The notes beneath the pieces are model-generated. The model was given only the letters and a program-made list of their open reading frames with translations, was not told the DNA's origin and searched no databases. A stretch of 64,000 nt of DNA, taken from NCBI GenBank assembly GCA_018826905.1, contig JAHJYC010000005.1:46681-110680 (forward strand), in the 5' to 3' direction. Each line of letters starts with the position of its first letter. Positions within the stretch are counted from its first letter, which is position 1. This stretch comes from Patescibacteria group bacterium. GTDB taxonomy: Bacteria > Patescibacteriota > Minisyncoccia > Phycocordibacterales > Phycocordibacteraceae. The translations under genes were made by a program, and so were the position numbers. Of this stretch, positions 2-36,582 are shown piece by piece.

Positions 2-3000
2 ACAGACGATGATATTGTTCTAGGTTCCGGTCTCTACCTTCAAAACAGCGGAACAGTATACGGAAGCCAGTTAGTTAATCTATCTAGCGGCGATAATGCC
101 GCGGTCGGGGTTCCAAGCACAGGCGTGGTGATTAATCGGAATATAGCAGACGCGAACTCGGCGTTGCTGGTCTCACAGGTCCACGCAGGCTCGACAGGAG
201 ATATCGTGCAATTCCTAAACAGCGCAGGGGCGCAAGTAGTCATCAAGCAAAGCGGGAATGTTGGTATCGGCACCACCTCGCCGTCCTACCCGCTTGCAGT
301 TGAAGGGGACATAAATGCAAACGGCAAGTACCGCGTAAACGGAACACAGGTGCTCTACCTTCCGAATCAGACAAGCCTCACGGGCTCATTGATCTATGGA
401 AATGGAGGAAACTCGCTCTCTAACACTTCTGGAAACGAAGGACGTTACAACACTGGCCTTGGCCTCGGTGCGTTAACTGCAATGACCACGGGTAGCTTCA
501 ATACTGCTATCGGACAAAACGCCCTTGAAGACACCACTACGGGAACATTCAACGTAGGTCTCGGCGGCTCAGCGTTGTTCCAGAACATAACTGGTTCATT
601 TAACTTGGCCATCGGCTACTCAGCACTTGGTGGTTCAACAAGCAACAGTTCTACTGTAGCAATTGGTACTCAGACCGGTGACCGCGTGACTGCTGACGGC
701 GGAACCTATATTGGTCATCAAGCAGGACGTGGAGCTTCTACGTACTCATCCACCGGAACCACTGCCGTAGGTTTCCAGGCTGGTTCAATCGGAACACCAG
801 GAAACTACAACACCTTCCTTGGGTACCGTGCCGGATATATTGTCACTGGCGCAACGAACACATTGCTCGGCTATCAGGCAGGAGACAATGTAACGTCAGG
901 TTCAAATAACATTGTTATTGGAAACAACATTGACGCTCCTTCCGCAACGGCAAGTAACCAATTGAATATTGGAAACATAATCTTTGGTACTACTATCTCA
1001 GGAACCGGTACTACTCTCTCAACAGGAAATATTGGTATCGGCACCACAAACCCTCTTGCAAAACTTGTTGTTGTTGGAGGCAATGCGAACTCGTTCCGGA
1101 TAGATAACGCAGGAGAACAGTATACGTCTATGGACTACTACAATGCAGGTAGTTCCAAGGCAACCACCTACTACGATAATTCAGGCGCTGAGTTTGTAAT
1201 GCGTACAACTGGATCAGCAAGTATTGGCTTTGATACGAACCTCACCCGAAAAATGACGATAACGAGTGCAGGCAACGTTGGTATCGGTACCACGACGCCG
1301 GGCACCCTCTTGTCTATTAGCGGGTCAAGTGCTGCTCTTACTATAACGGATACACGAGACGTCACTGGATCTATCGGAGATGTGGTGAACAGCATTGATT
1401 TCAGGAGTAATGACGCTAGTAATCTTCTCGCAGGCGCAGTACGTACAAAGATAAGTAGTGTTGCAGAGGACATCTACTGGTCTCAGACGGGACTGGCATT
1501 CTCAACGCATAATGGAACAACACTTTCAGAAAAGTTACGAATCACTAATGCAGGCAGCGTTGGTATCGGTACAACGACTCCACAAGGTCAAATGCATGTA
1601 ATTGGGAACATTTTTGCAACCGGCTCAAATGGTGCAGGGGGGCCTGGTGGACTTGGTCTCGTCGCTATTCCAGGCTCTCCTATATCAGGGCGCCTTACGT
1701 ACGGTACAGATGGCACTGGGTGGATGTTCAGAATCGCAAAGAATCAGGGAGGTACTGTTACAGACCAATTTACTATCGTAGACAATGGAAACGTCGGTAT
1801 TGGTACCACAAGTCCAATTTCAACACTCCATGTAGAGAACACGATAGGGACGGCCTCAACGCAGCTCTCTATAGTAAATGGGGTGAGTAGCGACTTCACT
1901 GGTAGTTCCATCTTGCTTCAGTCAGCAAACACTGCACGAGGTAACGGTATATTCTCACTAAACGGTTCCTCAGAATGGTACATGGGTACTCCGTACTCTA
2001 ATGATGTGTTTACCATAGCTCGGTCTGCTACTGCGACACACTCAAATGCAACTGCGCAGCTGACAAATAGTCTTCTAACAATATATCCTACGGGCAAGGT
2101 CGGTATCGGTACATCAACTCCAGCAACAACGCTTGATGTGTACTCCAGTGGCAACACGGGGCTTCAGGTGGGCGGGCCTTCCACTGCAAGTCCATATATT
2201 CAATTGAATCAGGGGGCAGTGACAAGAGCATTTATGCAGTACAATAATGCTGGAGGCTATACTGAATATTACTCTTCGGCTCCACACTACTTCTCAACGA
2301 GTAATGTTGGTATCGGCGACACCTCTCCTGACGCCAAGTTGGATATTCTCCAAGCAAGCGATACATCCGCACAAGGTTTCCAGATAAGTCGCTCAAATGA
2401 TACGGATTATACAAGACTCTACATGTCAGCAGGTGTCGGCTCACTTAGCGATACCCTCATCTTTAATACTTCCTTCGGAGGAGATGTTGCTGCAATTGGC
2501 AGGGATGGAAGTGCATACTTTGCCGGCAACGTTGGCATTGGTACAGCGAGCCCTACAAAAAAGCTGCTAGTTGCAACGAACACAGTAAATGGAGACGGTA
2601 TCACTGTGGTCAATGGGAGCACCGGTTCATATCTCACTCTTGAGGCAAATGGTGCAACCGGCTTTGGTGTTAGTAAGTGGGCACACTCTACGGTGCTGGA
2701 GGCGGTTCCTTCCTCAACAGGAGGATTAGTGCTCGGTGCGTACACAGGGGATATAACCTTCCAGACATCAGGCAGAAGCAACAGCATGACTATACTCGAG
2801 AACGGCAACGTCGGTATCAATAACACGAGCCCTTCTTATAGATTTACGGTCTCAGACTCTACATCAAGCGGTATAGCAGGACGATTTGCGCAAGGCGGTC
2901 TAGGTAGTCCGTTCGGTATCTATGCAACTGCTTCAGGGGCGGGTACGCAGAACACAGCGGGATACTTCCAGGCAGGTAGTGCAACAACCAACATTGGAGT

Positions 3001-5197
3001 GAACGCAGATGTGGCAGTGGGCGCAAATAATTACGCTATCTATGCAGGAAACACAGCCAAGTCATACTTTGCTGGCAACGTTGGTGTTGGGCCTGCCTCT
3101 CCACTTTCTAAATTGCATGTTTCAGCAACTGCAGCTGCAAGTATGACCCTTGGTTCTCCTACAGGTGTAGGTCTCACAGTTTCTCCAACTGGAGGCGGCT
3201 ACGGTCTTAACTTTGGAGCAAACTCTGATGGAAAGTCTTGGATTCAAGGAGGACGTGTTGATGGAACTGCAACTGCATACAACATTAGTATGCAGGCGGC
3301 AGGCGGTAACGTCGGTATCGGTACCACAAACCCTTCAGGAATGCTCACTGTCGGTGGTGTCCAGAGCGGTAATGCAGGTCTTGAAATTGTCCCAGGATCG
3401 GGTATTACGATGCAGGCGTATAATCGCACGAGCGTTGCCTATGCTTCTTTGAGTCTAGACGGAACAGCAATCAACATGCGCCCAAGCGGAACAATCATGG
3501 CAATAGTTAACGGAAGCGGACTTTTTGTATCAAACCTTGTCTCTTGTGGAGGTGTGCAGACAAACGGCTCAGGACTCATGAGCTGTACGTCAGATGAAAA
3601 CCTTAAGGATGTAGAGAGTGAATTCACTTCTGGCCTTACGGCAATCCGTGGCATTACCCCACAGACCTACACATGGAAGGAGGGAACTGAGTACTTTGAT
3701 GGAGGAATCCAGTACTCAGGATTCATTGCGCAGAACGTAGGAGCAAATATCCCTGAAGCGATGTCTACAGGCGCAAGTGGATTCAAGCAAATCAACACCA
3801 CGACAATCCTTGCAGCATCTGTGAACGCAATTAAAGAACTGGGAGACCGTACTGACTCGCTTTCGCTCGCGACCTCAACACTCGCTTCACGCCTCACCGT
3901 ACTTGAAGCAGCATCGTCAACACCAAAGGCTGTTGCGGCAACTGACCTTACAGCAACAGGCATCATTGTGACGGGGAATGGCTCCTTCACAGAAACAGTG
4001 TCCGCAAAGCGCTTCACTGTTGCAAACATAGAGCAGAGCTTCTCAATAGGAAGCACCACTGTATCAGTTGAGCTCCCTTCAAATGTACTCACTACTACAG
4101 GAAATGCAGACCTCTATAAGGTTGCTACGTACGCTATTGCAAAAGTACAAGCACTTGCAGACAGAACAGATCTTCTTGCGACTCGTATTGATTCAATTGA
4201 GTCTCGTTTGGTTGCACTTGAGAACGCGACTACTTCAGTTACAAGTATTGCGACCGGCACTCTTGATCTTGCAACAACAACAATCAAACAAGCACTCCGC
4301 AGCCTCGGCATTATGATTGAAGACGGTATCGCGCAGTTCCAGACACTGGTCTTCCGTCAGCTCGCAGTGTCTCAAGACGAAGACGGTGCATCGTCTGCAG
4401 GACAAGAAACTATCCTAGAAGGGAACACTGCCGTAAGGGTGGAAAACCAGTTTGTGCTCACAACTTCAAAGATCTTCGTTACCTTCACGAGTCCTGTTGA
4501 GGGCGCGTGGTACATCAGCAACAAAGAGCAGGGAAGCTTCAGGGTTACACTTGAACGTGCACAATCTTCAGATGTAAGCTTTGACTACTTCATCCTTCAG
4601 ACTGAAGGCCAGCTCGCTTCACCTGCCGGTGCTCCGCAACCAGTACAACAACCGGCGCCGCTTCCAGCAGTACCGCCAACCTCAGATCAGCAGGGAGGAA
4701 ATGAAGGAGGTACTTCAGCACCAGAAAACACCTCTGGAGACACAACTGCCCCACAGATAACATTGAACGGACAAGCAGCAAGAGAAATCACAAAGGGAAG
4801 TAGTTGGACTGATCCAGGAGCAACTGCAACAGATGAGACTGATGGAGATCTCACGGCAGCTATACAAAAAACAGGCTCTGTAGATACAAATACAGTAGGC
4901 ACCTACACAATCTCTTACTCCGTCTCTGATGCCGCAGGAAACGAGGGCCACGTATCACGCATTGTGACTGTTAAGGAAGGTACAACTTCAGGATCTGGTA
5001 CTACTCCAGCTCCAGCACCTACCCCGGCTCCAGCTCCAGCACCTGAGCCAACACCCGAACCTGCGCCAGCTCCTGCCCCTGCGCCAGCACCTACCCCGGC
5101 TCCAGCTCCCGCTCCCGCGCCTGCACCAGCTCCTGCCCCTGCGCCAGCACCTACCCCGGCTCCGGCTCCAGCTCCCGCGCCTGCACCAGCAGCGTAG
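2..5197 (+). CDS. Giant surface / tail-fibre-like repeat protein, 5' truncated by the window edge. It carries about 11 GNVGIGTTxP...L repeats, an internal peptidase-S74 intramolecular-chaperone domain (SDENLKDV autocleavage motif, ~3590-3960), a coiled coil, a DUF5011-like Ig domain (~4740-4975) and a C-terminal (PAPAPT)n tail.
   Basis: The reading frame is open from base 2 with no upstream stop; the ORF track gives 125..5197. The NVGIGTTSP/NPLAKL-type motif recurs through the first ~3.3 kb. 'SDENLKDVESEF...TYTWKEGTEYFDGGIQYSGFIAQNV' matches the endosialidase / T5 pb1-type chaperone-of-endosialidase domain. Confidence 0.75.
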   Translation, partial: TDDDIVLGSGLYLQNSGTVYGSQLVNLSSGDNAAVGVPSTGVVINRNIADANSALLVSQVHAGSTGDIVQFLNSAGAQVVIKQSGNVGIGTTSPSYPLAVEGDINANGKYRVNGTQVLYLPNQTSLTGSLIYGNGGNSLSNTSGNEGRYNTGLGLGALTAMTTGSFNTAIGQNALEDTTTGTFNVGLGGSALFQNITGSFNLAIGYSALGGSTSNSSTVAIGTQTGDRVTADGGTYIGHQAGRGASTYSSTGTTAVGFQAGSIGTPGNYNTFLGYRAGYIVTGATNTLLGYQAGDNVTSGSNNIVIGNNIDAPSATASNQLNIGNIIFGTTISGTGTTLSTGNIGIGTTNPLAKLVVVGGNANSFRIDNAGEQYTSMDYYNAGSSKATTYYDNSGAEFVMRTTGSASIGFDTNLTRKMTITSAGNVGIGTTTPGTLLSISGSSAALTITDTRDVTGSIGDVVNSIDFRSNDASNLLAGAVRTKISSVAEDIYWSQTGLAFSTHNGTTLSEKLRITNAGSVGIGTTTPQGQMHVIGNIFATGSNGAGGPGGLGLVAIPGSPISGRLTYGTDGTGWMFRIAKNQGGTVTDQFTIVDNGNVGIGTTSPISTLHVENTIGTASTQLSIVNGVSSDFTGSSILLQSANTARGNGIFSLNGSSEWYMGTPYSNDVFTIARSATATHSNATAQLTNSLLTIYPTGKVGIGTSTPATTLDVYSSGNTGLQVGGPSTASPYIQLNQGAVTRAFMQYNNAGGYTEYYSSAPHYFSTSNVGIGDTSPDAKLDILQASDTSAQGFQISRSNDTDYTRLYMSAGVGSLSDTLIFNTSFGGDVAAIGRDGSAYFAGNVGIGTASPTKKLLVATNTVNGDGITVVNGSTGSYLTLEANGATGFGVSKWAHSTVLEAVPSSTGGLVLGAYTGDITFQTSGRSNSMTILENGNVGINNTSPSYRFTVSDSTSSGIAGRFAQGGLGSPFGIYATASGAGTQNTAGYFQAGSATTNIGVNADVAVGANNYAIYAGNTAKSYFAGNVGVGPASPLSKLHVSATAAASMTLGSPTGVGLTVSPTGGGYGLNFGANSDGKSWIQGGRVDGTATAYNISMQAAGGNVGIGTTNPSGMLTVGGVQSGNAGLEIVPGSGITMQAYNRTSVAYASLSLDGTAINMRPSGTIMAIVNGSGLFVSNLVSCGGVQTNGSGLMSCTSDENLKDVESEFTSGLTAIRGITPQTYTWKEGTEYFDGGIQYSGFIAQNVGANIPEAMSTGASGFKQINTTTILAASVNAIKELGDRTDSLSLATSTLASRLTVLEAASSTPKAVAATDLTATGIIVTGNGSFTETVSAKRFTVANIEQSFSIGSTTVSVELPSNVLTTTGNADLYKVATYAIAKVQALADRTDLLATRIDSIESRLVALENATTSVTSIATGTLDLATTTIKQALRSLGIMIEDGIAQFQTLVFRQLAVSQDEDGASSAGQETILEGNTAVRVENQFVLTTSKIFVTFTSPVEGAWYISNKEQGSFRVTLERAQSSDVSFDYFILQTEGQLASPAGAPQPVQQPAPLPAVPPTSDQQGGNEGGTSAPENTSGDTTAPQITLNGQAAREITKGSSWTDPGATATDETDGDLTAAIQKTGSVDTNTVGTYTISYSVSDAAGNEGHVSRIVTVKEGTTSGSGTTPAPAPTPAPAPAPEPTPEPAPAPAPAPAPTPAPAPAPAPAPAPAPAPAPTPAPAPAPAPAPAA
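4984..5194 (+). repeat. Coding tandem repeat: imperfect 60-bp units (at least two near-identical copies at ~5068-5127 and 5128-5187) encoding a (PAPAPT)n low-complexity tail.
   Basis: Direct repetition of 'agctcctgcccctgcgccagcacctaccccggctcc(a/g)gctcc...' is visible in the sequence. It is translated as TPAPAPAPAPAPAP... Confidence 0.8.
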
Positions 5198-6279: not shown

Positions 6280-6819
6280 ATGATGACGGAAAGACTTAAT
6301 TCCCGTCAAAAAGGATTCACCCTGATAGAGCTACTTGTTGTTATCGCTATCATTGGTCTTTTGTCTTCCGTTGTTCTTGCGTCACTGAATACAGCGAGAG
6401 TTAAGTCACGAGATGCAAAACGCATTCAGGATCTTACCAGTATTAGGACTGCGCTTGAACTGCATTTTCTGGACAGAGGATATTATCCGCAATCGGGATG
6501 CGGATGGGACTGTAACGGGTATCGGTACAGCTACGACTCCTCGTGGACAACGCTTGCAGCTGATCTTGCTCCTTACATAAAGCAACTACCAGTAGATCCA
6601 TTGAATGCTCCAGGGTGCGGCCCATGGGGTAATGGGTGCTACACCTATGCCTATGGAAATGTTGGAAGAAATACCTATCCACACCAGTATGACCTCACGG
6701 CACAACTTGAAGACCCTACTAGTTCGCACCGATGTTCTGTAAAGGGATACCTGTTTTATTTCAATAATCAGCCGTGGTGTGGAGGGTACTCTGGACAGAT
6801 ATATGAAGCTTCAAGATAA
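6280..6819 (+). CDS. Type IV pilin-like / pseudopilin protein with a prepilin-type N-terminal cleavage-methylation domain.
   Basis: 'KGFTLIELLVVIAIIGLLSSVVLASLNTAR' class-III signal peptide with a G^F cleavage site. Confidence 0.8.
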   Translation: MMTERLNSRQKGFTLIELLVVIAIIGLLSSVVLASLNTARVKSRDAKRIQDLTSIRTALELHFLDRGYYPQSGCGWDCNGYRYSYDSSWTTLAADLAPYIKQLPVDPLNAPGCGPWGNGCYTYAYGNVGRNTYPHQYDLTAQLEDPTSSHRCSVKGYLFYFNNQPWCGGYSGQIYEASR

Positions 6820-16044: not shown

Positions 16045-16437
16045 ATGCTCACTATTTCTTTCGCCATGCACATTCTCCGATCCAAACCAGCAATCATTAG
16101 TTTCATAGTGCTGGCATTGGCCGTGCTAGGGCTTCTATACTATTTCCTTATTTTTAAGGAAACAAACCCAAAATCAGTGACTCTCCATACCTACGTCTGT
16201 AGTGATGGATCGTACTATTTCATGCGTGTTGACGACAAAGCGATTGAGGTTGCTGGTGTGCGATACGAGCTTGTTTCAGAAGAGGAAGGTATGCGCTACG
16301 AGGGAACAGGACCGATGGCGTTTACAATTAACGCTCCAGCTCTCAACGTATCGCTTAGAGAATCGGGTGAGGTGATAGCCGCATGCGAGCAAGGTTCAGT
16401 TGAAAGCACTCCCATTCTTGAACTGAAAAATATATGA
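16045..16437 (+). CDS. Hypothetical small membrane-anchored secreted protein (two Cys). It is downstream of, and probably co-transcribed with, the transglycosylase gene.
   Basis: N-terminal TM helix, 130 aa, 4-bp ATGA overlap with the following gene. A weak resemblance to MliC-type lysozyme inhibitors is speculative. Confidence 0.45.
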   Translation: MLTISFAMHILRSKPAIISFIVLALAVLGLLYYFLIFKETNPKSVTLHTYVCSDGSYYFMRVDDKAIEVAGVRYELVSEEEGMRYEGTGPMAFTINAPALNVSLRESGEVIAACEQGSVESTPILELKNI

Positions 16438-18272
16438 CACACATAACTACCGTATCCTTTTTGCATATGAACCGTTCATTCATCTTTCTATTTGTTTTCG
16501 CTTCCTTCTTTTTCGCTCTTGCAACACCACAGGCTCAAGCTTGTCGGTTTACCTGTTCTGTTGGCTCTGGAGGCTACATAGAGACTGGTCCAGGGCGCAC
16601 GGTCTGCCATGCCGGGGATACAGGAGGTGTTGATGCAGCCTGGGAAGGGTGTGATGAGGGGGGTGGCAATGATAGTGGAGGAGGAGGAGGGGGCGGAGGT
16701 GGAGGAGGGGGCGGCAGTAATCCCGACCTTACCGCAAGCGGTATCTCTCCACAGTCAGCAACAGTTGGATTTTCACAGACATATTCTGCGACTATCACGA
16801 ATGGAACTTCGGGGTTTGCGGGCGCGTCAGTTGCTCTCTTCCAGAAGGCAACCAACTCAAGCGGTGCAAATGCGGAAAACATCGGAACTGCCACAACTGA
16901 AAGCCTCGGTGGCGGCGCTTCTAGGAATGTCTCTTTGAGCTATACGCAGGGTTCTGTTGGTACGTTCTACATGAGAGCGTGTGCTGATACCAATAATGCA
17001 GTCGCTGAGACCAGTGAGAGCAATAACTGTGGTCCGTGGACCGCTGTAAACATTCAGCAGGTAACATCTGGCTCAGCGTGTGCGGTAACCACTACGGTCG
17101 GGCAACCAACGCCCTTTACGTTTGATGCAACAGGAAACTTTGCTCCAAGAAACGAAGTACGGTTTGTTGTACGTTGGCAGGGCACTTCTCCTAGTTACTA
17201 CCCTGACGACACGACGTGGTTCACCTCACTTCCTCAGGTCATATCAAATACTTGGAATGCGCCAGGGACATATACCATGACAGCGAGTGCCATGAGTAAT
17301 ATTGCTGGCGGGGGGTTTGCTGACCCGGTCGCTGTCTCAATTAATGGCTCCGGGTACGCTGTGAATCAATCTTGTGTCGTTACGGTGCAGGGTAATGAAA
17401 ACCTACCCGACCTTACGGCAGGGAGCATCTCTCCAACAACAGCACGAGTTGGGCAATCGGTTGCGCTCTCTGGAACAGTTACAAATATAGGAGCGGCTGT
17501 TGCTCCTGCCAGTAACACCTACTTCAGAATCTTGAATAGTGGAGGAAAGCAAATCTACCAAAACACGGTAAATATACCTGCAATACAGCCGAGTGCAGGG
17601 GACACGCGTTCAGTCTCCTACACCTTTACTGCAGAAGGAACGTATCAAGCGCAAATCTGTGGAGACTGGTTTGGATCAGTTACAGAATCAAACGAGAACA
17701 ATAACTGTGGTCCGCTTACCCCGATTAGCGTAACCAGCATCGTGAATGCGAATACCGTGTCTTGTTCAGTAAGTAATACGAATGTAAATCCTGGCGGGTC
17801 AGTAACCTACACAGCAATTCCTTCAGGAAGTGCGACAGGTCCATATACTTGGGTTGCGGACGACGGAGCTACAGGGTTTGGGACTAACGGGACGGCAACA
17901 CGTACCTTTGCTACTGCTGGTAACTACGGCATGCAGGTCTCTGCGACGGTTACCAGTCCTGCACAATGTCCAATTGTTACCGTTGCTGCGTGTGTAGGAA
18001 CACCTACCGTAGAGATTACAGCCACTCCAGCTCGTGTGCGGTCAGGGAGTACAACTACCCTGCGATGGTCAGGAACTGCCATAAACAACACCTGTACTAT
18101 CACGGGTCCTGGCGTGTCTCAAACTGTGTCTGCAGCCTCGTGTACCGTTCCTGAAGGAACTACAAGTTCCGGTACTATCACTACACAGAGTACGTACAGT
18201 ATTAGTTGTGATAACGGAGCAGTTACTGATTCTGTTATCGTGAACGTTATCCCTGAGTTTGAAGAGTTTTAA
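16434..18272 (+). CDS. Secreted surface protein with a poly-Gly tract, two CARDB-like domains (ending 'ESNxNNCGP') and an Ig-like Cys-pair domain. The C-terminus reads ...IVNVIPEFEEF.
   Basis: Signal peptide. 'GGGNDSGGGGGGGGGGGGG'. CARDB motifs 'DLTA.GISP...VTN.G...ETSESNNCGP'. 612 aa. Confidence 0.75.
   Translation: MTHITTVSFLHMNRSFIFLFVFASFFFALATPQAQACRFTCSVGSGGYIETGPGRTVCHAGDTGGVDAAWEGCDEGGGNDSGGGGGGGGGGGGGSNPDLTASGISPQSATVGFSQTYSATITNGTSGFAGASVALFQKATNSSGANAENIGTATTESLGGGASRNVSLSYTQGSVGTFYMRACADTNNAVAETSESNNCGPWTAVNIQQVTSGSACAVTTTVGQPTPFTFDATGNFAPRNEVRFVVRWQGTSPSYYPDDTTWFTSLPQVISNTWNAPGTYTMTASAMSNIAGGGFADPVAVSINGSGYAVNQSCVVTVQGNENLPDLTAGSISPTTARVGQSVALSGTVTNIGAAVAPASNTYFRILNSGGKQIYQNTVNIPAIQPSAGDTRSVSYTFTAEGTYQAQICGDWFGSVTESNENNNCGPLTPISVTSIVNANTVSCSVSNTNVNPGGSVTYTAIPSGSATGPYTWVADDGATGFGTNGTATRTFATAGNYGMQVSATVTSPAQCPIVTVAACVGTPTVEITATPARVRSGSTTTLRWSGTAINNTCTITGPGVSQTVSAASCTVPEGTTSSGTITTQSTYSISCDNGAVTDSVIVNVIPEFEEF
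17406..18272 (+). repeat. Copy A of an ~870-bp dispersed duplication (~85% nt identity to 20689..21558). It encodes a CARDB domain plus an Ig-like domain plus the IPEFEEF terminus.
   Basis: Visual alignment of the two segments. The protein identity is about 90%. Confidence 0.85.
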
Positions 18273-19278: not shown

Positions 19279-21558
19279 ATGACTTCTTCACGCAGCTTTC
19301 CATTGCATATAGCATTCCTAATAGCGTCATTGGTTGCTTTGAGTGGTTTCTTGATGCCGCTTACTACGCATGCGCTCCCTCCCTCAGAAGCTGAGATAGA
19401 TGATGGGGGAGATGGTGGAGGAGGAGGAGGTGGTGGAGATGAGGGATACACGACGCCAACAGTAAGTATCACAGCGTCTCCGTCTAGCATACAGAGCGGT
19501 TACTCTTCTCAACTAAGCTTTAACTCGTCAGGCGTAACACGGTGCGTAATTGATAATGGCATCGGTGCCGTGTCCTCAAATATTGGCGGCACGCGTGTAG
19601 TATCTCCGACTCAATCAACCACGTACAGAATTAGCTGTGATGCACCACTGGAAGTCGTTACCGATGAAGTGATTGTTAACGTGGCACCTGCGCCGACACC
19701 ACTCACTGCATACTGCGAAGCTGGTCCGGACACTGCACAAATCAATGAAACCGTGCAGTGGAGTGCGACCCATTCAACAGGCTCTTCATCTGGTCTTGTC
19801 TGGCAGCAAGGCGCTTCATTTACCACAAAGATCTGTTCAGGAGGACAAAATTACCAATCATTGAACAGAACGTGTTCTGACGATGTTATGAACGGAGACG
19901 CTTGTTCAGTTGAGGGTCAACGTTGTAGACAGAGTGCGGGTTGTGATGGAGATACCTATACAGATGGCGAAGGTCAGCCTAATGCACATACTCAGTACGG
20001 AAGTGTTACGCCCTTCACTTGCGTTGCTTCTGGTCCTAGTAATGCTACCTACTCCTACGCATGGACGGGAACAGATGGGCTCACTGGAGCAACACAAGCA
20101 GTTTCAAAGGCATATGCCACTGCTGGAGAGAAGACCGGCCGCGCGACGGTAACACGAAGTACTGGTGGGTCGGCAAGCGCAAGTTGTACGGCACAAATTA
20201 GTCCAAGGACTCCAACAGCAACGCTAACAGCAAACCCGTCGTCTATTACGGCTGGTTCTCCATCAACACTTACGTGGAGTTCAACAAATGCGAATGCCTG
20301 TACGTTGAACGAGAGTATTGGATCTGTGTCTACTTCTGGTACCCGCTCAGTTTCTCCAGGTTCAACAACAACGTACACACTCATGTGTACAGCACCTTCC
20401 ACAGCTGTGTCTGGTACATGGCAATACAGAGGAAGTGATATAAGCGACTTTGCTTGCGTGCAGCCTGGCAATAACATAACTGATACCAATAAGGCGTATT
20501 CAAGTGTTCCGAACTGTCCAAGCAACCCGCAAGGAAAGGCCTGTAGCACTACTGGGGCATGTAAAGTGAATACAGTTCAGGGCTGCAACATTCATACGGA
20601 TATCTATGAGTGTTCAGGCTCATCTTCAAGTCCCGCGCAGTCTGCTACAGCCTCTGCGACTGTAACTGTTACCGCAACACCAACGCTCCCAGATCTCACG
20701 GCAGGGAGCATCTCGCCAACAACAGCAAGAACTGGCCAAGCAACATCGCTCTCTGGGACAGTTACAAACATAGGAGGAGCTGTTGCACCCGCAAGCAATA
20801 CGTACTTCAGAATCTTGAATAGTGGAGGGAAGCAGGTGTATCAAAACACGGTAAATATACCGGCCGTACAACCTGGATCTGGTGATACACGCTCAATCGC
20901 GTACACCTTTACTGCAGAAGGAACGTATCAGGCACAAGTGTGTGGAGACTGGTTTGGATCAGTTACGGAATCAAATGAGGGTAACAACTGTGGTCCGCTC
21001 ACACCAATTAGTGTAACGAGCATCGTGAACGCGAATACTGTGTCTTGTTCAGTGAACAACACAAGCATCAACCCCGGCGGGTCAGTAACGTACTCGGCAA
21101 CTCCTTCAGGAAGCGCAACCAGTCCATATACTTGGGTTGCAAATGATGGAGCTACAGGGTTTGGGTCTGGTGCTACTGCAACCCGCACCTTCACTGCTGC
21201 AGGTAACTACGGCATGCAAGTATCAGCCACAGGCGCCACAGCCCCTGCACAATGCCCGGTAGTCTCTGTTGCCGCGTGTGTAGGAACACCGACCGCTGAA
21301 ATAACAGCCACTCCAGCTCGTGTACGTTCAGGAGGTACAACTACTCTTAGATGGACGGCAAGTGCCATTAACACCTCGTGTACTATCACAGGCCCCGGTG
21401 TGTCCCAAACAGTATCCGCTGCCTCGTGTACCGTGCCGGAGGGAACAACTGGATCAGGAACCATTACAACCCAAAGCACCTATACAATTAGCTGCGACAA
21501 TGGGGAAATCACAGACTCCATTATCGTGAACGTTATTCCTGAGTTTGAGGAGTTTTAA
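19279..21558 (+). CDS. Secreted surface protein, a paralog of 16434..18272. It has a poly-Gly/Asp tract, three Ig-like Cys-pair domains, a Cys-rich central region and a C-terminal CARDB + Ig module ending IPEFEEF.
   Basis: Signal peptide. 'DDGGDGGGGGGGGDEG'. The C-terminal 290 aa are ~90% identical to the 16434 ORF. 759 aa. Confidence 0.75.
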   Translation: MTSSRSFPLHIAFLIASLVALSGFLMPLTTHALPPSEAEIDDGGDGGGGGGGGDEGYTTPTVSITASPSSIQSGYSSQLSFNSSGVTRCVIDNGIGAVSSNIGGTRVVSPTQSTTYRISCDAPLEVVTDEVIVNVAPAPTPLTAYCEAGPDTAQINETVQWSATHSTGSSSGLVWQQGASFTTKICSGGQNYQSLNRTCSDDVMNGDACSVEGQRCRQSAGCDGDTYTDGEGQPNAHTQYGSVTPFTCVASGPSNATYSYAWTGTDGLTGATQAVSKAYATAGEKTGRATVTRSTGGSASASCTAQISPRTPTATLTANPSSITAGSPSTLTWSSTNANACTLNESIGSVSTSGTRSVSPGSTTTYTLMCTAPSTAVSGTWQYRGSDISDFACVQPGNNITDTNKAYSSVPNCPSNPQGKACSTTGACKVNTVQGCNIHTDIYECSGSSSSPAQSATASATVTVTATPTLPDLTAGSISPTTARTGQATSLSGTVTNIGGAVAPASNTYFRILNSGGKQVYQNTVNIPAVQPGSGDTRSIAYTFTAEGTYQAQVCGDWFGSVTESNEGNNCGPLTPISVTSIVNANTVSCSVNNTSINPGGSVTYSATPSGSATSPYTWVANDGATGFGSGATATRTFTAAGNYGMQVSATGATAPAQCPVVSVAACVGTPTAEITATPARVRSGGTTTLRWTASAINTSCTITGPGVSQTVSAASCTVPEGTTGSGTITTQSTYTISCDNGEITDSIIVNVIPEFEEF
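20689..21558 (+). repeat. Copy B of the ~870-bp duplicated module.
   Basis: See 17406..18272. Confidence 0.85.
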
Positions 21559-31705: not shown

Positions 31706-32485
31706 TTAGTCCTCAATATCAATGCGTACTGAACGAGAGTTGTTTCCTTCGTTAGACTCGCTTATGTCGCGGTCTGGGTCTACGACGATAGTAATCTCAC
31801 GATCGTCTCCTTCGCGTGTTTGGTCAAATCCAAGGACGTAATCAATGCGCTCTCCAGGCTTGAGTGACTCTTGCTTGCCTGAGTGGAAGGTATAGCTACG
31901 GCTCGTTGGGAGCTCTGCATCAAATTCAAAGCGTCCTGAGATGTTTGTACCACGGTTAGCGATGGTGAACTTCACCGCACCACGCTCTCCATCTGGAACA
32001 CGGCTTGAAGCACGGAACGTGTCAGTGTCTGAAGACGTAAGGTATCCAGTAGTGATGTTTTCAATCACAAGGTCAGGGAGACCAAAGAGGGGAGCTGGAG
32101 TTGTTCCAACCTGTACGACACGCGTGACGGGAGTTCCTGGTGTTGGTGTTACCGGTGTAGTGTCTGGTGTCTCTGTTGCAGGAGGAGTTGTTGTTGCTGC
32201 AGGGATATCGTCTCCAAAGGGAACAGTCTCTGTGGGTGGAACCACAACGAGATCTGTGTCCTCAGTGTTTGGCTGGAATGCAGATGAGAAGTACACCGCA
32301 GCTGAACCGATGCGAGAAATAGCAGACGGCACAAAAGTTGCTGCATAAATGGCAAGCGCCATTCCAATAAGAATAAGGACGATAAATCCAACGATTGCAA
32401 GACCGTTTACCGCTGCACGGCGAACAGGCCTCTCCGAAGTTCGTAGTGTGGTCAGTTCCATATGCGCATTGTTTACCACACCCAT
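31706..32485 (-). CDS. N-terminally anchored secreted protein with a Thr/Pro-rich linker and a CARDB-like domain.
   Basis: TM helix. 'TTPPATETPDTTPVTPTPGTPVT'. CARDB end motif 'DPDRDISESNEGNNS'. Confidence 0.65.
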   Translation of the reverse strand: MGVVNNAHMELTTLRTSERPVRRAAVNGLAIVGFIVLILIGMALAIYAATFVPSAISRIGSAAVYFSSAFQPNTEDTDLVVVPPTETVPFGDDIPAATTTPPATETPDTTPVTPTPGTPVTRVVQVGTTPAPLFGLPDLVIENITTGYLTSSDTDTFRASSRVPDGERGAVKFTIANRGTNISGRFEFDAELPTSRSYTFHSGKQESLKPGERIDYVLGFDQTREGDDREITIVVDPDRDISESNEGNNSRSVRIDIED

Positions 32486-32614: not shown

Positions 32615-33277
32615 ATGGCACTTGTCACAAATACCGTACAGCTGATTCGCGCTTCAGGGCGCGTATATGCTAAGAAATGGAGCTTTCTTCTCGCTTTTCT
32701 AGCGGTGTTCTTCGTATCATTCTCGGTTCTCGCGATCCTAGACTTGGTACCAGAAGCACCTGCCACAATCGTTGAGGAAGCAGTGGTAGTGCCACAGGAC
32801 GCATTGGTTGCTTCTGTGGTGTCAGCAGTACCTGAGAATCCTGTTCGTGTGGAGATTCCAGATATTGATCTTGATGTAACAATCAAGAACCCTGAGAGCA
32901 CAGATGTTGAGACCTTGGACGCTGCACTCCTTACAGGTGCAGTGCGTTATCCAACGTCAGCACAGCTTGGAGAAGAAGGGAACGTAATTCTCTTCGGACA
33001 CTCAAGCTACCTGCCGGTGGTAAACAACAAGGCGTTCAAGGCATTTAATGCAATTCAGAACCTTTCAGAGGGAAACCGCATTCTCGTACATAGTGAGGGG
33101 ATGACGTATGTCTACTCTGTAACGGACGTAGCTTCTGCAGACGCTGAGTCTGCTGCTATTCCACTTACAAAGACCGGACACACGCTAACACTCGCTACAT
33201 GTGATTCGTTTGGAAAGAAGACGGATCGTTTTGTGGTGGTCGCTCAACTTGTTGAGAGCTATCCGCTCGGAAGCTAG
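32615..33277 (+). CDS. Sortase-family transpeptidase.
   Basis: N-terminal TM helix. His motif 'ILFGHSSY'. Catalytic 'TLTLATCD' (TLxTC). Downstream conserved Arg ('RFVVVAQL'). Confidence 0.7.
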   Translation: MALVTNTVQLIRASGRVYAKKWSFLLAFLAVFFVSFSVLAILDLVPEAPATIVEEAVVVPQDALVASVVSAVPENPVRVEIPDIDLDVTIKNPESTDVETLDAALLTGAVRYPTSAQLGEEGNVILFGHSSYLPVVNNKAFKAFNAIQNLSEGNRILVHSEGMTYVYSVTDVASADAESAAIPLTKTGHTLTLATCDSFGKKTDRFVVVAQLVESYPLGS

Positions 33278-33372
33278 ACTTCTTGGCTGATAGGTCGCTG
33301 CAAGTAGCAGGCAGGACCAACTGTTCTTCAACCGCCGCCAATCAGGCGGCTCACAAAAGGAAGGAACTCGCC

Positions 33373-34278
33373 ATGCGAGATCTTAACCGACGTGCGCTGC
33401 TCCTTGCGGGCGGCGCATCCTGCGCACTGGGCGTCACTCCAGGCTTCGCCGGGCAAGACCCGACGTGGGAAAACTGGGGTGGAGCACCCTACGGAACCAG
33501 TTTCAGTGACGTGACTTCGGACACCAAGTTCGACTTCGCGTTGCAAGAACTCGGCATTCCCGAACCGCTCCGCCAGCCCTTCAAGGATCTGGTGCGCGCA
33601 AACCCGACTCCCGAGCCGCTCGTGTACCTGGTTCCCAACCAGGTCCTGAACGGCATGATGAGCGGTACTGATTCGCGGCACCCGAGGCCGCACGTCATGC
33701 GCAACGTCACCGTCGGCCGGACTGTCATCTCCCGGGGTGTCGTCCGAGCAGCGGAAGCTTGGGAATGGCGTCTCTCTCACGAGGGTCGCCTGTACCGGCT
33801 GATTCTTCCCAAGGTCTGCTTCAACTGGTCTCTGATCATCGAAGAAGAACCCGGAGAAGAACGCTGCGTCGAGCTGCACTTTAACGCCTTCGTTGGCGGC
33901 AATGTGCGCTGGGGCGTGGGCAGTTTGGACGGCGCGCTTGCGCCGAGCAGCTGCAACGCCATCCGGCAAGGCGACGGGTCTTGGAAGGCTTGGGGCGGGG
34001 AATGTGACGAATGCGTGCCGGCGGTTGGCTACATCAGTCAAACGCTGCGCGGAACGGCACAGGTCCCGCATCGGTACCTCTACGACGTCACGGAGCGTCA
34101 TCAAACGATCCGGTTTTCAACCGAGATCTGGGAGAAGACGGTCTACATCTGTCTGGAGGACGCGAACGGCAGAAGGTCCTGCGGGGTGTACATGCGCCCC
34201 GAAGACTGGAACGGTCGCTATTCCGCCGACATCCCTGATTCCATGTGGATCTTGGACGAAGGAAACTGTCCCGCATAG
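33373..34278 (+). CDS. Hypothetical secreted Cys-containing protein with a twin-arginine (Tat)-type signal peptide. It sits inside a GC-rich (~62-65%) compositional island.
   Basis: Strong SD 'aaggaaggaa' upstream of ATG 33373. 'MRDLNRRALLLAGGASCALG'. GC3-rich codons (ctg/ggc/ttc/gac) unlike the neighbouring genes. A terminator-like nested hairpin lies at 34287-34330. Confidence 0.6.
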   Translation: MRDLNRRALLLAGGASCALGVTPGFAGQDPTWENWGGAPYGTSFSDVTSDTKFDFALQELGIPEPLRQPFKDLVRANPTPEPLVYLVPNQVLNGMMSGTDSRHPRPHVMRNVTVGRTVISRGVVRAAEAWEWRLSHEGRLYRLILPKVCFNWSLIIEEEPGEERCVELHFNAFVGGNVRWGVGSLDGALAPSSCNAIRQGDGSWKAWGGECDECVPAVGYISQTLRGTAQVPHRYLYDVTERHQTIRFSTEIWEKTVYICLEDANGRRSCGVYMRPEDWNGRYSADIPDSMWILDEGNCPA

Positions 34279-34390: not shown

Positions 34391-36526
34391 TTGATTATGG
34401 AACTCATGAAAGAACACATTGCATACGCGAAGACGCGCCCGATTATGGTTGCGATATTTGCTGTGCTCGCAACCATATCCATTGGTATGGCTGTTGCGTA
34501 CGCAACAGGATTCACTGTACCTGAGCCAACACAGGCACAGGTTATTGGACCTCCTTGTTGTACTCCGCCACCACCACCACCCCCTCCTCCGCCACCACCA
34601 CCACCACCACCCCCGCCACCGCCACCGCCACCGCCACCACCATTGCCGGTGCCGCAGTGTGAGCTTTCTGCAGCCCCAACTCAGGTATCTGTTGGAGGAA
34701 CCTCAATACTTACGTGGAGTACGGTTAATGCAACAAGTGCATCTATAGATCAGGGAGTTGGTCCAGTAAGTCCTGTAGAGGGCGGATCAGTGCCAGTAAC
34801 GGTTACAGGCAATACAACCTATACACTTACCGCAACTGGTCCTGGAGGAACCGTAACCTGTACTGCAGCTGTAACGGTGCCACCGCCACCAGATGAACTA
34901 CCAGTGTGTACGCTTGTTGCAAATCCAACGGCTATTCAGATTGGAGGATCTTCAGTACTTACGTGGACTACACAGAACTCAGTATCATTTGTTATTGACC
35001 GTGGAGTAGGGTCAGTAACTCCAGTTGCTGGAGGAGATGTGTCAGTGTCACCATTAGTGACTACTACCTATACCGGTACTGCAACAGGAACGAACGGGCA
35101 GACAGTTACCTGTGCTGCGACGATTACAGTAAGTATTCTCCCGCCAGCGCCTGTTTGTACTCTCGTCGCAAATCCAACGACCATAAACCCAGGTGGCTCC
35201 TCAACACTCACCTGGACTACTCAGAATGTAACGAGCGCCACTATTGATCAGGGAATCGGAGCCATCACTCCAGTTACTGGGGGATCAGTACCCGTATCTC
35301 CTTCAGTCACTACGACGTACACGCTTACGGGAACTGGAACAAACGGACAGACTGTTACGTGTCCTGCAACGGTTACCGTAACCACCAATCCTGTACCGAT
35401 CTGTACTCTTGTTGCTAATCCAACCACAATTGATCGTGGAGATGAGTCAACGCTTACATGGACAAGCTCCAATGTAACCTCGGGATCCATTAATCAGGGT
35501 GTAGGAACTATTACTCCAGTAGCTGGTGGAGACACACGCGTCTCTCCAACAAGTGACACGACCTATACCGCAACCTTCACGGGTCCATATGGAGATGTCA
35601 CCTGTACTGCAGCGGTTGATATCCGCAGCACCACTGGAGGAGGGGGAGGAGGCGGAGGACGTCGTAGTCCTCGCGTTGTCCTAGACTCACTTAAGCAACC
35701 TCTAGAAGAGCCACTCTCGTTCGTGTATCTCTCTGAGACTCCATATACTGGTCTTGATCTAGGACCATGGGGAACTGCGATCTACTGGCTCATGCTTATC
35801 GGATGGAGTGCTGCTGCTGCGTACCTTGTACTCTTCAACGCACTACCGTTTGTAACCGCTAGAGCACGAAGCTTTGGAGGGAATGTGAAGCAGGCACTAA
35901 ATGTTGAGCCAATTGAGATGAGTGCACATGCTGCACCAGCGCATGACACACACACTGCTCATCCGTCTGCTCCAACGCCAAGTCGTCCAGAAGGATTCAA
36001 TCAACGTGATGGATTCCGTTCATTCGCAGCGAACGAAGGCCTCACCATTGATGACATTGTAAAGGGACTCTCACGTCAGATTGAGGAGCGTCAGGACACA
36101 CGTCCAGAGGCAACTCCAGCATACACAGAACGTACTGCTGAACCTGTCGCACACGCAGCCCCTGTTCGTGAGGTGCCTAAGGCAACACATGAGCCAGTGT
36201 CTGAAGACGTTCGTGACTTCCTCGCAGCCCTTCTTGCAGGAGATCGTGATACGGTCTTCGGTATGATCCGCAACCTCGCTCGTGAGGGTGAGGACACGGA
36301 GCTCTTCGTCTCACATGCAGCATGTGCTCTTGATGACGCATACCGCGCATGTATTGATGGCACTACCTGTCACCCAGATATTGCTGAGCTCACGAGTGGA
36401 TGCCACCCATCATTCCTTGAGCGCATTGTTACCTCACTCACGACTGCTGTTGATGGAAGCTATTCAACCGGTATCACCGGTGTGAAGATGGCTCTCACAC
36501 GTGCACTCGGCGTAGTGGCTGGATAA
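34391..36526 (+). CDS. Large surface protein. Its parts in order: N-terminal signal-anchor, a ~29-residue poly-Pro tract, four tandem ~83-aa Ig-like Cys-pair repeats, a poly-Gly tract, a second TM helix, and a ~230-aa C-terminal domain with a Cys/His cluster.
   Basis: TM 'IMVAIFAVLATISIGMAVAYA'. (CCN)n at 34565-34645. Repeats 'TLTW.T.N.TSA.IDQG.G..TPV.GG...VSP...TTYT.T.TG..G.TVTC.A.VTV' x4. 'GGGGGGGGRRSPR'. TM 'AIYWLMLIGWSAAAAYLVLF'. The first ATG is at 34397. Confidence 0.75.
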   Translation: MIMELMKEHIAYAKTRPIMVAIFAVLATISIGMAVAYATGFTVPEPTQAQVIGPPCCTPPPPPPPPPPPPPPPPPPPPPPPPPPLPVPQCELSAAPTQVSVGGTSILTWSTVNATSASIDQGVGPVSPVEGGSVPVTVTGNTTYTLTATGPGGTVTCTAAVTVPPPPDELPVCTLVANPTAIQIGGSSVLTWTTQNSVSFVIDRGVGSVTPVAGGDVSVSPLVTTTYTGTATGTNGQTVTCAATITVSILPPAPVCTLVANPTTINPGGSSTLTWTTQNVTSATIDQGIGAITPVTGGSVPVSPSVTTTYTLTGTGTNGQTVTCPATVTVTTNPVPICTLVANPTTIDRGDESTLTWTSSNVTSGSINQGVGTITPVAGGDTRVSPTSDTTYTATFTGPYGDVTCTAAVDIRSTTGGGGGGGGRRSPRVVLDSLKQPLEEPLSFVYLSETPYTGLDLGPWGTAIYWLMLIGWSAAAAYLVLFNALPFVTARARSFGGNVKQALNVEPIEMSAHAAPAHDTHTAHPSAPTPSRPEGFNQRDGFRSFAANEGLTIDDIVKGLSRQIEERQDTRPEATPAYTERTAEPVAHAAPVREVPKATHEPVSEDVRDFLAALLAGDRDTVFGMIRNLAREGEDTELFVSHAACALDDAYRACIDGTTCHPDIAELTSGCHPSFLERIVTSLTTAVDGSYSTGITGVKMALTRALGVVAG
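34565..34645 (+). repeat. Coding (CCN)n microsatellite (poly-proline).
   Basis: 'ccgccaccaccaccacccc...ccgccaccgccaccgccacc' seen directly. Confidence 0.85.
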
Positions 36527-36542
36527 GAGCTAGACACAATTC

Positions 36543-36582
36543 AAAACACCCAGGGCATTGTCCTTGGGTGTTTTGTGTTTCT
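36543..36582. terminator. Bidirectional rho-independent terminator between convergent genes.
   Basis: 'aaaacacccagggcattgtccttgggtgttttgtgttt'. Confidence 0.7.

Follow-up and report, generated by a model that had tools for sequence, protein, structure and literature searches.

How does a Patescibacterium hold in place a surface protein whose exterior varies while its membrane anchor and cytoplasmic end are conserved? The question is raised by an open reading frame (ORF) in the stretch analysed here, a 64-kb window of Paceibacteria (Patescibacteria) DNA. The ORF lies exactly where a first-pass annotation had placed it, at 34391-36526 on the forward strand; at 711 amino acids (aa) plus stop, its product is not the giant protein described there. 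That annotation, which recognized homopolymeric tracts, Ig-like repeats and a second transmembrane (TM) helix, overlooked three features: a PYTG motif, a neighbouring sortase and a tail fold like that of DnaX domain III. Our preferred reading, to which we give a probability of about 0.55, is that the protein is a dedicated sortase substrate whose sorting signal runs on into a cytoplasmic domain of the collar type.

The PYTG motif and the conserved C-terminal module

The ORF and the features of its C-terminal part are listed below, with aa numbering that of the 711-aa ORF from its TTG codon.

34391-36526, + strand: whole ORF, 711 aa plus stop, TTG being the start as listed
35660-35752, + strand: conserved pre-anchor segment RRSPRVVLDSLKQPLEEPLSFVYLSE-TPYTG (aa 424-454), with PYTG at 35741-35752
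YLSETPYTGLDLG: peptide around the predicted cleavage motif, spanning the PYTG segment
35777-35854, + strand: TM helix (aa 463-488), with basic TARARS next, assigned by hydropathy, AlphaFold2 (AF2) and positive-inside statistics
36011-36079, + strand: conserved cytoplasmic helix segment GFRSFA...LTIDDIVKGLSRQ (aa 541-563), with variable disordered linkers on either side
36197-36523, + strand: C-terminal cytoplasmic helical domain (aa ~603-711) with a predicted fold like DnaX (gamma/tau) domain III, the clamp-loader collar

More than 1,600 relatives were retrieved by homology, and all those with a named source come from Patescibacteria, Parcubacteria, Paceibacterota or Kaiserbacteria. Among the matches listed, PYTG was present in 114 of 120, and in all but one of these 245-338 residues separate it from the C-terminus. 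The conserved unit is a C-terminal module consisting of the motif, the TM helix and the tail; the ectodomain is not conserved. A profile of this module found 1,311 cluster representatives at 50% identity, 797 of them at E<=1e-10. It sits invariably at the extreme C-terminus, behind N-terminal parts of very different length, and apparent short members of the family turned out to be truncated gene calls. Profile scans against Pfam and NCBIfam gave no curated family, either for the whole protein at E<=0.1 or for the tail at E<=10. Judged by sequence, the module defines an unannotated Paceibacteria family. One relative of 317 aa (P0183) seemingly lacks an ectodomain, and its motif is degenerate (LSQISYAG); the gene may have decayed, or this may be a variant that naturally has no ectodomain.

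In the target, the pentapeptide TPYTG (aa 450-454) ends 8 residues ahead of the TM helix. The family consensus before the helix is Q-P-L-x-[FY]-V-Y-L-S-[QE]-[IVLMT]-P-Y-T-G-L-[DE]-L-G-P-x-G-T, and P, Y, T and G are invariant in the alignment of family C-terminal tails (A1). Of the 208 members with a recognizable motif, all have P and T, 206 have G and 202 have Y. I, V, L, M or T stands before P, about 200 of the 208 read [IVLMT]PYTG, and the rare core variants (PQTG, PHTG and PSTG) mostly differ at the x position of LPxTG. Such conservation has the pattern of an [LIV]PxTG sortase signal. AF2 left the motif region unstructured, with a pLDDT (predicted local distance difference test) of ~50, so the segment would be accessible. 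In the literature searched, we found no description of PYTG as a sortase motif; the single paper with both terms is an unrelated Clostridium engineering study.

The helix that follows was predicted by AF2 with a pLDDT of 88-96, and the best 19-residue Kyte-Doolittle window had a family mean of 2.2 and a value of 1.83 in the target. Lysines and arginines numbered 0 in the 15 residues before the helix versus a mean of 2.6 in the 15 after it, and net charge was −1.25 before and +1.75 after (n = 207). By this positive-inside pattern the tail is cytoplasmic, and the basic residues match the stop-transfer feature of sorting signals. Hydropathy, a confident AF2 helix and charge thus support both the second TM helix and the cytoplasmic C-terminal domain proposed in the first-pass annotation.

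The sortase and its gene cluster

The genes and signals surrounding the target are as follows.

31706-32485, - strand: membrane-anchored CARDB-domain protein with a Thr/Pro-rich linker (PF07705, E 2.4e-8), divergent from the sortase
32615-33277, + strand: sortase of 220 aa, membrane-anchored at its N-terminus, with catalytic His in LFGHSSY, Cys in TLATCDSFG and Arg in DRFVV; PF04203, E 3.6e-22
33283-34278, + strand: variable secreted Cys-rich 'middle' gene, with a probable start at ATG 33373 giving MRDLNRRALLLAGG...
36542-36575, + strand: terminator-like hairpin separating the target from the convergent thrS, with a 14-bp stem, 7 GC pairs and a T-rich tail

The sortase gene lies two genes upstream of the target on the same strand. 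Its catalytic residues are intact, and the H/C/R triad is invariant in eight orthologs (alignment A2); the closest solved structures are only distantly related to it. A strong terminator-like hairpin stands 3' of the target gene, and none was found between the target and the sortase. In the closest genome, Patescibacteria UBA6241, the sortase is 90% and the target ortholog 88% identical.

This linkage was found from both sides. On the sortase side, 438 species-representative genomes encode this type of sortase; 80 loci were fetched, of which 54 had enough downstream sequence and the remaining 26 end within 2.9 kb. Every one of the 54 informative loci contained exactly one family gene, on the same strand and 4-2278 nucleotides (nt) downstream. 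On the substrate side, a sortase lay upstream on the same strand in all eight loci with upstream sequence, including those of a divergent subfamily. In the two loci of that subfamily, L006 and L008, the sortase is the immediate neighbour of the family gene, 26 and 2 nt away respectively. The neighbourhood from gyrB to thrS, dnaE and rnhB was syntenic in all loci. No other credible sorting-signal protein was found within ±10 kb of the sortases in the 80 neighbourhoods or in the 64-kb window. Candidates for other short-tail [LIVM]PxTG substrates, from a scan of the 80 sortase neighbourhoods, were spurious ORFs only and were rejected.

One related locus, L007, has an additional gene between the sortase and the family gene. 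It encodes a 195-aa paralog in which a signal peptide and a single Ig-like Cys-pair domain are followed by IPYTG, a TM helix and the short tail RTKQSFSQLFK. This layout is that of a canonical sorting signal, and the pentapeptide is the same. As support for a sortase signal in the target, this paralog is anecdotal, short-tail PYTG proteins not being established as a family. This divergent Patescibacteria locus also carries a reverse-transcriptase (RVT_1) gene at 1785-2756 (+), immediately upstream of gyrB.

The other neighbours are less constant. In six related loci a CARDB-type protein is encoded at this position and in this orientation, and the sequences align; in L007 a DUF1573-type protein takes its place. 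The CARDB neighbour may belong to the same system. The 'middle' gene, in the most GC-rich part of the window (0.54), gave no Pfam or NCBIfam match; its start resembles a twin-arginine signal. In related loci, this position is occupied by at least two unrelated families, with relatives of the window's gene in L004 and L005 and an unrelated protein in L001 and L003; in L006 and L008 the 'middle' gene sits on the far side of the sortase.

The cytoplasmic tail and the ectodomain

An AF2 prediction of the tail, built on 29 diverse tails, gave disordered linkers, a conserved helix (GFRSFA...LTIDDIVKGLSR) with a pLDDT of ~70 and a terminal six-helix domain at aa ~603-711 with a pLDDT of 96-98. In a 115-sequence tail alignment, the residues conserved in at least 90% of sequences were G541, F542, L551, D555, I556, V557, G559, L560 and R562 in the helix segment and, in the terminal domain, included L647-D648, Y651-R652, D688, Y691 and T696-G697-x-K699-x-A701-x-T703-R704-A705-L706. 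In the 88% ortholog the terminal domain is almost unchanged, whereas the linkers drift. The Cys/His motif that the first-pass annotation had highlighted in this domain, CIDGTTCHPDIAELTSGCHP (aa 654-673), is poorly conserved (C654 in 24%, H672 in 48%, the others in 68-83%), and for that reason we rejected it as a family-wide metal site.

The predicted structure of the terminal domain has the helical fold of a collar domain. When 38 terminal domains were scanned singly, the most frequent Pfam match was PF12169, 'DNA polymerase III subunits gamma and tau domain III', which was found in 7 of 38 with a best E of 2.2e-4. The matches are mutually collinear and in the same register, which makes it probable, from sequence comparison below the family threshold, that the domain is a remote homolog of DnaX domain III. 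DnaX domain III is reportedly the oligomerization and subunit-binding collar of the clamp loader. When profiles of the tail (A1) and of the terminal domain (A4) were run against PDB sequences, they matched only de novo designed helical repeat proteins; we attribute these matches to composition or to the helical-repeat pattern and not to homology. No dnaX- or holB-like ORFs (Walker A plus SRC) turned up in 1.4 Mb of related Paceibacteria sequence. Short motifs of the VEP[IV]Y[ED]N type occur as one to four tandem copies in 46 of 208 family tails (P0011, P0040, P0015 and others). They lie between the conserved helix and the terminal domain, never in ectodomains, and the target has none; they could be docking or modification motifs.

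It is conceivable that the C-terminal domain is a clamp-loader collar mimic or partner that tethers DnaX, delta and delta' to the membrane and so couples the envelope to DNA replication. Its fold and its weak sequence similarity single out DnaX domain III, which binds other clamp-loader subunits, and replication genes (gyrB, dnaE and rnhB) always surround the cluster. However, this gene order is simply syntenic, the target has no AAA+ domains, and the helical collar fold serves oligomerization elsewhere, for example in the C-terminal domain of MgsA/RarA. Binding to clamp-loader subunits would be a prediction from fold and gene context, and we consider this explanation very improbable.

The features of the N-terminal part and the ectodomain are listed here.

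34391-34537, + strand: N-terminal signal peptide or anchor (aa 1-49), with a basic n-region, a hydrophobic core at aa 17-43 and then TQA↓QV
34565-34642, + strand: poly-Pro tract (aa 59-84), 26 Pro in a row, preceded by conserved GPPCC
34649-34885, + strand: Ig-like Cys-pair repeat 1 (aa 87-165), Cys 90/157; repeat hidden Markov model (HMM) E 2.4e-39
34898-35137, + strand: Ig-like Cys-pair repeat 2 (aa 170-249), Cys 173/241
35147-35386, + strand: Ig-like Cys-pair repeat 3 (aa 253-332), Cys 256/324; repeat HMM E 2e-39
35393-35629, + strand: Ig-like Cys-pair repeat 4 (aa 335-413), Cys 338/405; repeat HMM E 2.2e-42
35636-35659, + strand: membrane-proximal spacer of eight Gly (aa 416-423)

Translation probably starts at the ATG at 34397 (MELMKEH...) rather than at the TTG, the N-terminus MELMKEHIAYAKTRP being kept in orthologs from that Met. 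By hydropathy, aa 17-43 form a hydrophobic segment, and the A-x-A↓Q-V that follows is conserved in full-length homologs; this N-terminal segment is probably a cleaved signal peptide, with cleavage inferred from that site. The earlier description of the protein as bitopic is therefore doubtful. If A-x-A↓Q-V is a signal-peptidase site, the mature protein would pass the membrane once, with the poly-Pro tract at its free distal tip. The membrane- or wall-proximal spacer would then be the Gly run and not the Pro run, which had been taken for a membrane stalk. LPXTG proteins have Pro/Gly-rich wall-spanning regions, and most homologs of the target have a Gly run, 3-25 residues long, ahead of the motif. 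The GPPCC right after the putative signal-peptidase site (window aa 53-57) is conserved in several homologs including the target. Many homologs, P0128, P0129, P0136 and P0210 among them, carry G-C-T-S-N-C directly before the poly-Gly, which the target lacks.

The homopolymeric tracts agree well with their first description. The eight Gly are encoded by a (GGN)8 tract at 35636-35659 detected by TRF, and the estimate of about 29 Pro was a fair one, with 30 Pro within aa 54-88, the uninterrupted 26 included. TRF reported the CCN tract at 34568-34642, with mixed codons and 81% matches to CCA. The suggestion that the Pro tract could vary in length was also borne out: it is 6 residues shorter in the 88%-identical ortholog (L009, UBA6241) than in the window, and ranges from 0 to 45 residues across species. 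The public UBA6241 assembly has an ambiguous base (X in the translation) within this tract, which is evidently hard to assemble or polymorphic.

All four target repeats matched their own HMM with E of ~1e-39 to 1e-42, and structure prediction folded the repeat as a 7-strand Ig-like sandwich with a pLDDT of 97.6, so the four Cys-pair repeats of the first-pass annotation are present and their Ig-like fold is confirmed at the level of prediction. Its account of copies elsewhere in the window held in part. With a narrow HMM built from the target's four repeats, the ORF at 19279 gave two clear copies and a marginal third (E 0.057) instead of three clear ones, and none was detected in the ORF at 16434. 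Nor is the repeat confined to one genome's set of surface proteins, as had been proposed: more than 600 copies occur in 245 retrieved Paceibacteria proteins, some of quite different architecture. The target repeat gave no Pfam match. Among 52 repeats, the best Pfam family, Ig_ADGRF3, matched just 5 (best E 4e-5), and matches to Ig_ADGRF3, Big_2 and PKD were sporadic and weak. Repeat number varies from 0 to 9 among 172 full-length homologs.

These ectodomains bear on whether the protein is the subunit of a sortase-polymerized fibre or pilus, in which a class C-like enzyme would join the PYTG Thr to a nucleophile of the next subunit. Tandem Ig-like domains would suit such a subunit, [IV]PxTG is similar to pilin signals (IPQTG, for instance), and the extra small IPYTG protein of L007 could be a minor subunit. 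Some family members also carry domains of the SpaA or isopeptide type, which are typical of sortase substrates and so speak for the preferred reading as well. Yet the 374-aa ectodomain of the target contains zero Lys and no YPK motif, and 33 of 184 family ectodomains are likewise Lys-free. The canonical Lys nucleophile and pilin motif are thus absent, which argues against pilin-type polymerization via a Lys nucleophile. Each locus, moreover, has a single sortase gene and one family gene, with no set of major and minor pilins in the 54 loci. Taken with these points, we give a fibre subunit only a very small chance.

The ORFs at 16434-18272 and 19279-21558 (+) are paralogous secreted proteins with CARDB and PKD domains, no TM helix and an identical C-terminus, ...VNVIPEFEEF. 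We rejected 'IPEFEEF' as a recurrent C-terminal signal, having found it in only those two paralogs and in no other ORF of 1.4 Mb of related sequence. Near the window edge, a 1690-aa ORF at 125-5197 (+) combines Peptidase_S74 (endosialidase intramolecular chaperone) with Bact_surface_Ig-like and a C-terminal tail of ~60 residues of (Ala-Pro)n; its architecture is tail-fibre-like, in a cellular genome. At 6280-6819 (+) lies a type IV pilin-like protein with the N-terminal methylation motif GFTLIELLVV.

A proposed extended sorting signal compared with known systems

If the protein is a sortase substrate, its path to the surface may be pictured as follows. The precursor would be exported via its N-terminal signal sequence, and its variable ectodomain would fold outside the cell as a Pro-rich tip, a number of disulfide-bonded Ig-like domains and a Gly spacer. 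The C-terminal module would retain the precursor in the membrane and expose the unstructured ...YLSx[IV]PYTG at the outer face, where the sortase would cut between T and G and pass the ectodomain to the cell wall or to another envelope nucleophile. The tail domain might oligomerize or dock precursors, or the cleaved membrane stubs, at the cytoplasmic face, so that sorting would be organized or reported there.

Several observations weigh against this reading. The short charged tail that is a defining feature of classical sorting signals does not end the protein, 245-338 residues following the motif in 113 of 114 homologs, and a tiny cell would bear the cost of a ~260-aa stub for every molecule. 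The NCBIfam LPXTG-anchor models gave no match to the target protein. Strong conservation also reaches ~25 residues upstream of PYTG; sortase signals do not usually show this, and it could mean another role. On the enzyme side, no NCBIfam sortase class model recognizes the sortase above its cut-off, the best being class E at 49.6 bits versus 160. Adjacency to the sortase could partly reflect frozen gene order; the rearrangement in L006 and L008, in which the pairing is kept, argues against mere freezing. The short-tail IPYTG paralog is an orphan, as a database search with its full 195 aa returned itself alone. For the tail, the PF12169 matches were all below the gathering score (best 21.5 versus 24.4 bits), and the target's own terminal domain, scanned against Pfam, gave no PF12169 match.

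Some of these points would suit a protein that is never cleaved. It is possible that the target is a type I membrane receptor or adhesin, with PYTG as a conserved juxtamembrane element at which, for example, the sortase-like or CARDB neighbour would dock, and with the DnaX-III-like domain coupling it to the cytoplasm. A long, strongly conserved tail suggests a function of its own, which is easiest to picture in an intact protein, and both the conserved residues upstream of PYTG and the absence of a classical short tail fit this picture. However, an invariant P-x-T-G at the position of a sortase signal, beside an intact sortase in 54 of 54 and 8 of 8 loci, is hard to explain in this way, and a tail-less paralog shares the pentapeptide. 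An ectodomain that varies freely between 0 and 9 repeats is ill-suited to a specific ligand sensor. The first-pass comparison to a signalling receptor or an anchored adhesin thus survives as an alternative that we hold to be fairly unlikely, and its signalling part finds no recognizable kinase, HAMP, GGDEF or similar domain in the tail.

Within the preferred reading of a sortase substrate, a bolder version can be formulated. The target may represent a new type of sorting signal, an anchor fused to a module derived from DnaX domain III; after cleavage, the membrane-tethered collar would form envelope-organizing rings or dock onto the clamp loader and thereby link the assembly of the surface to replication of the chromosome in the ultra-small cells of Paceibacteria. 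We regard this version as decidedly unlikely.

The locus offers a testable enzyme-substrate pair, [IV]PYTG and its sortase, for a whole class of uncultivated bacteria. If the tail oligomerizes or signals, this would change the view of sorting signals, which are usually taken as disposable retention tags, and would mean that a domain of a replication protein has been reused at the cell envelope. A variable ectodomain on an invariant anchor is the pattern expected of a fast-evolving surface for contact with hosts or partners in episymbiotic bacteria.

Sortases are enriched in Candidate Phyla Radiation (CPR)/Patescibacteria (PMC6744442). We found no substrate or recognition motif described for CPR sortases in the literature searched. 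The CPR 'Pam' pilus is a donor-strand system and unrelated. Compared with Ig-like, PKD and Big tandem-repeat adhesins, the target shares a 7-strand beta-sandwich in tandem repeats of ~80 residues with variable copy number; it differs in that its repeats carry a conserved Cys pair near the first and last strands and that no single curated Pfam family captures them. The terminal domain is similar in fold to DnaX domain III (PF12169), a collar also present in delta, delta' and RFC subunits, whereas it is preceded not by AAA+ domains I-II but by disordered linkers and the TM helix of a surface protein, and the family's sequence matches all stay under the Pfam gathering score.

The closest resemblance is to Gram-positive LPXTG proteins, the substrates of sortase A/E-type enzymes. 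Like these, the target has a putative export signal, a repetitive Ig-like ectodomain, a Pro/Gly-rich spacer, [LIV]PxTG right before a hydrophobic helix, basic residues after it and an H/C/R sortase encoded alongside. Unlike these, its family has x fixed as Tyr and conserves ~25 upstream residues, its signal runs on past the basic residues into a conserved cytoplasmic region of ~225 aa with a folded domain, its sortase lies outside the curated class models, and it belongs to a Patescibacterium and not to a firmicute or actinobacterium. In streptococci and enterococci, cleaved remnants of LPXTG sorting signals are either sensed or degraded once left in the membrane, and here too what the sortase leaves in the membrane may itself act. 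Those remnants, however, are of ~30 residues without a folded domain, whereas the putative remnant here would be of ~260 residues with a conserved globular domain. We know of no precedent for a sorting signal fused to a large conserved cytoplasmic domain of the clamp-loader-collar type, or for a DnaX-III-like domain on a surface protein. The design is previously undescribed, and it is present in many related genomes.

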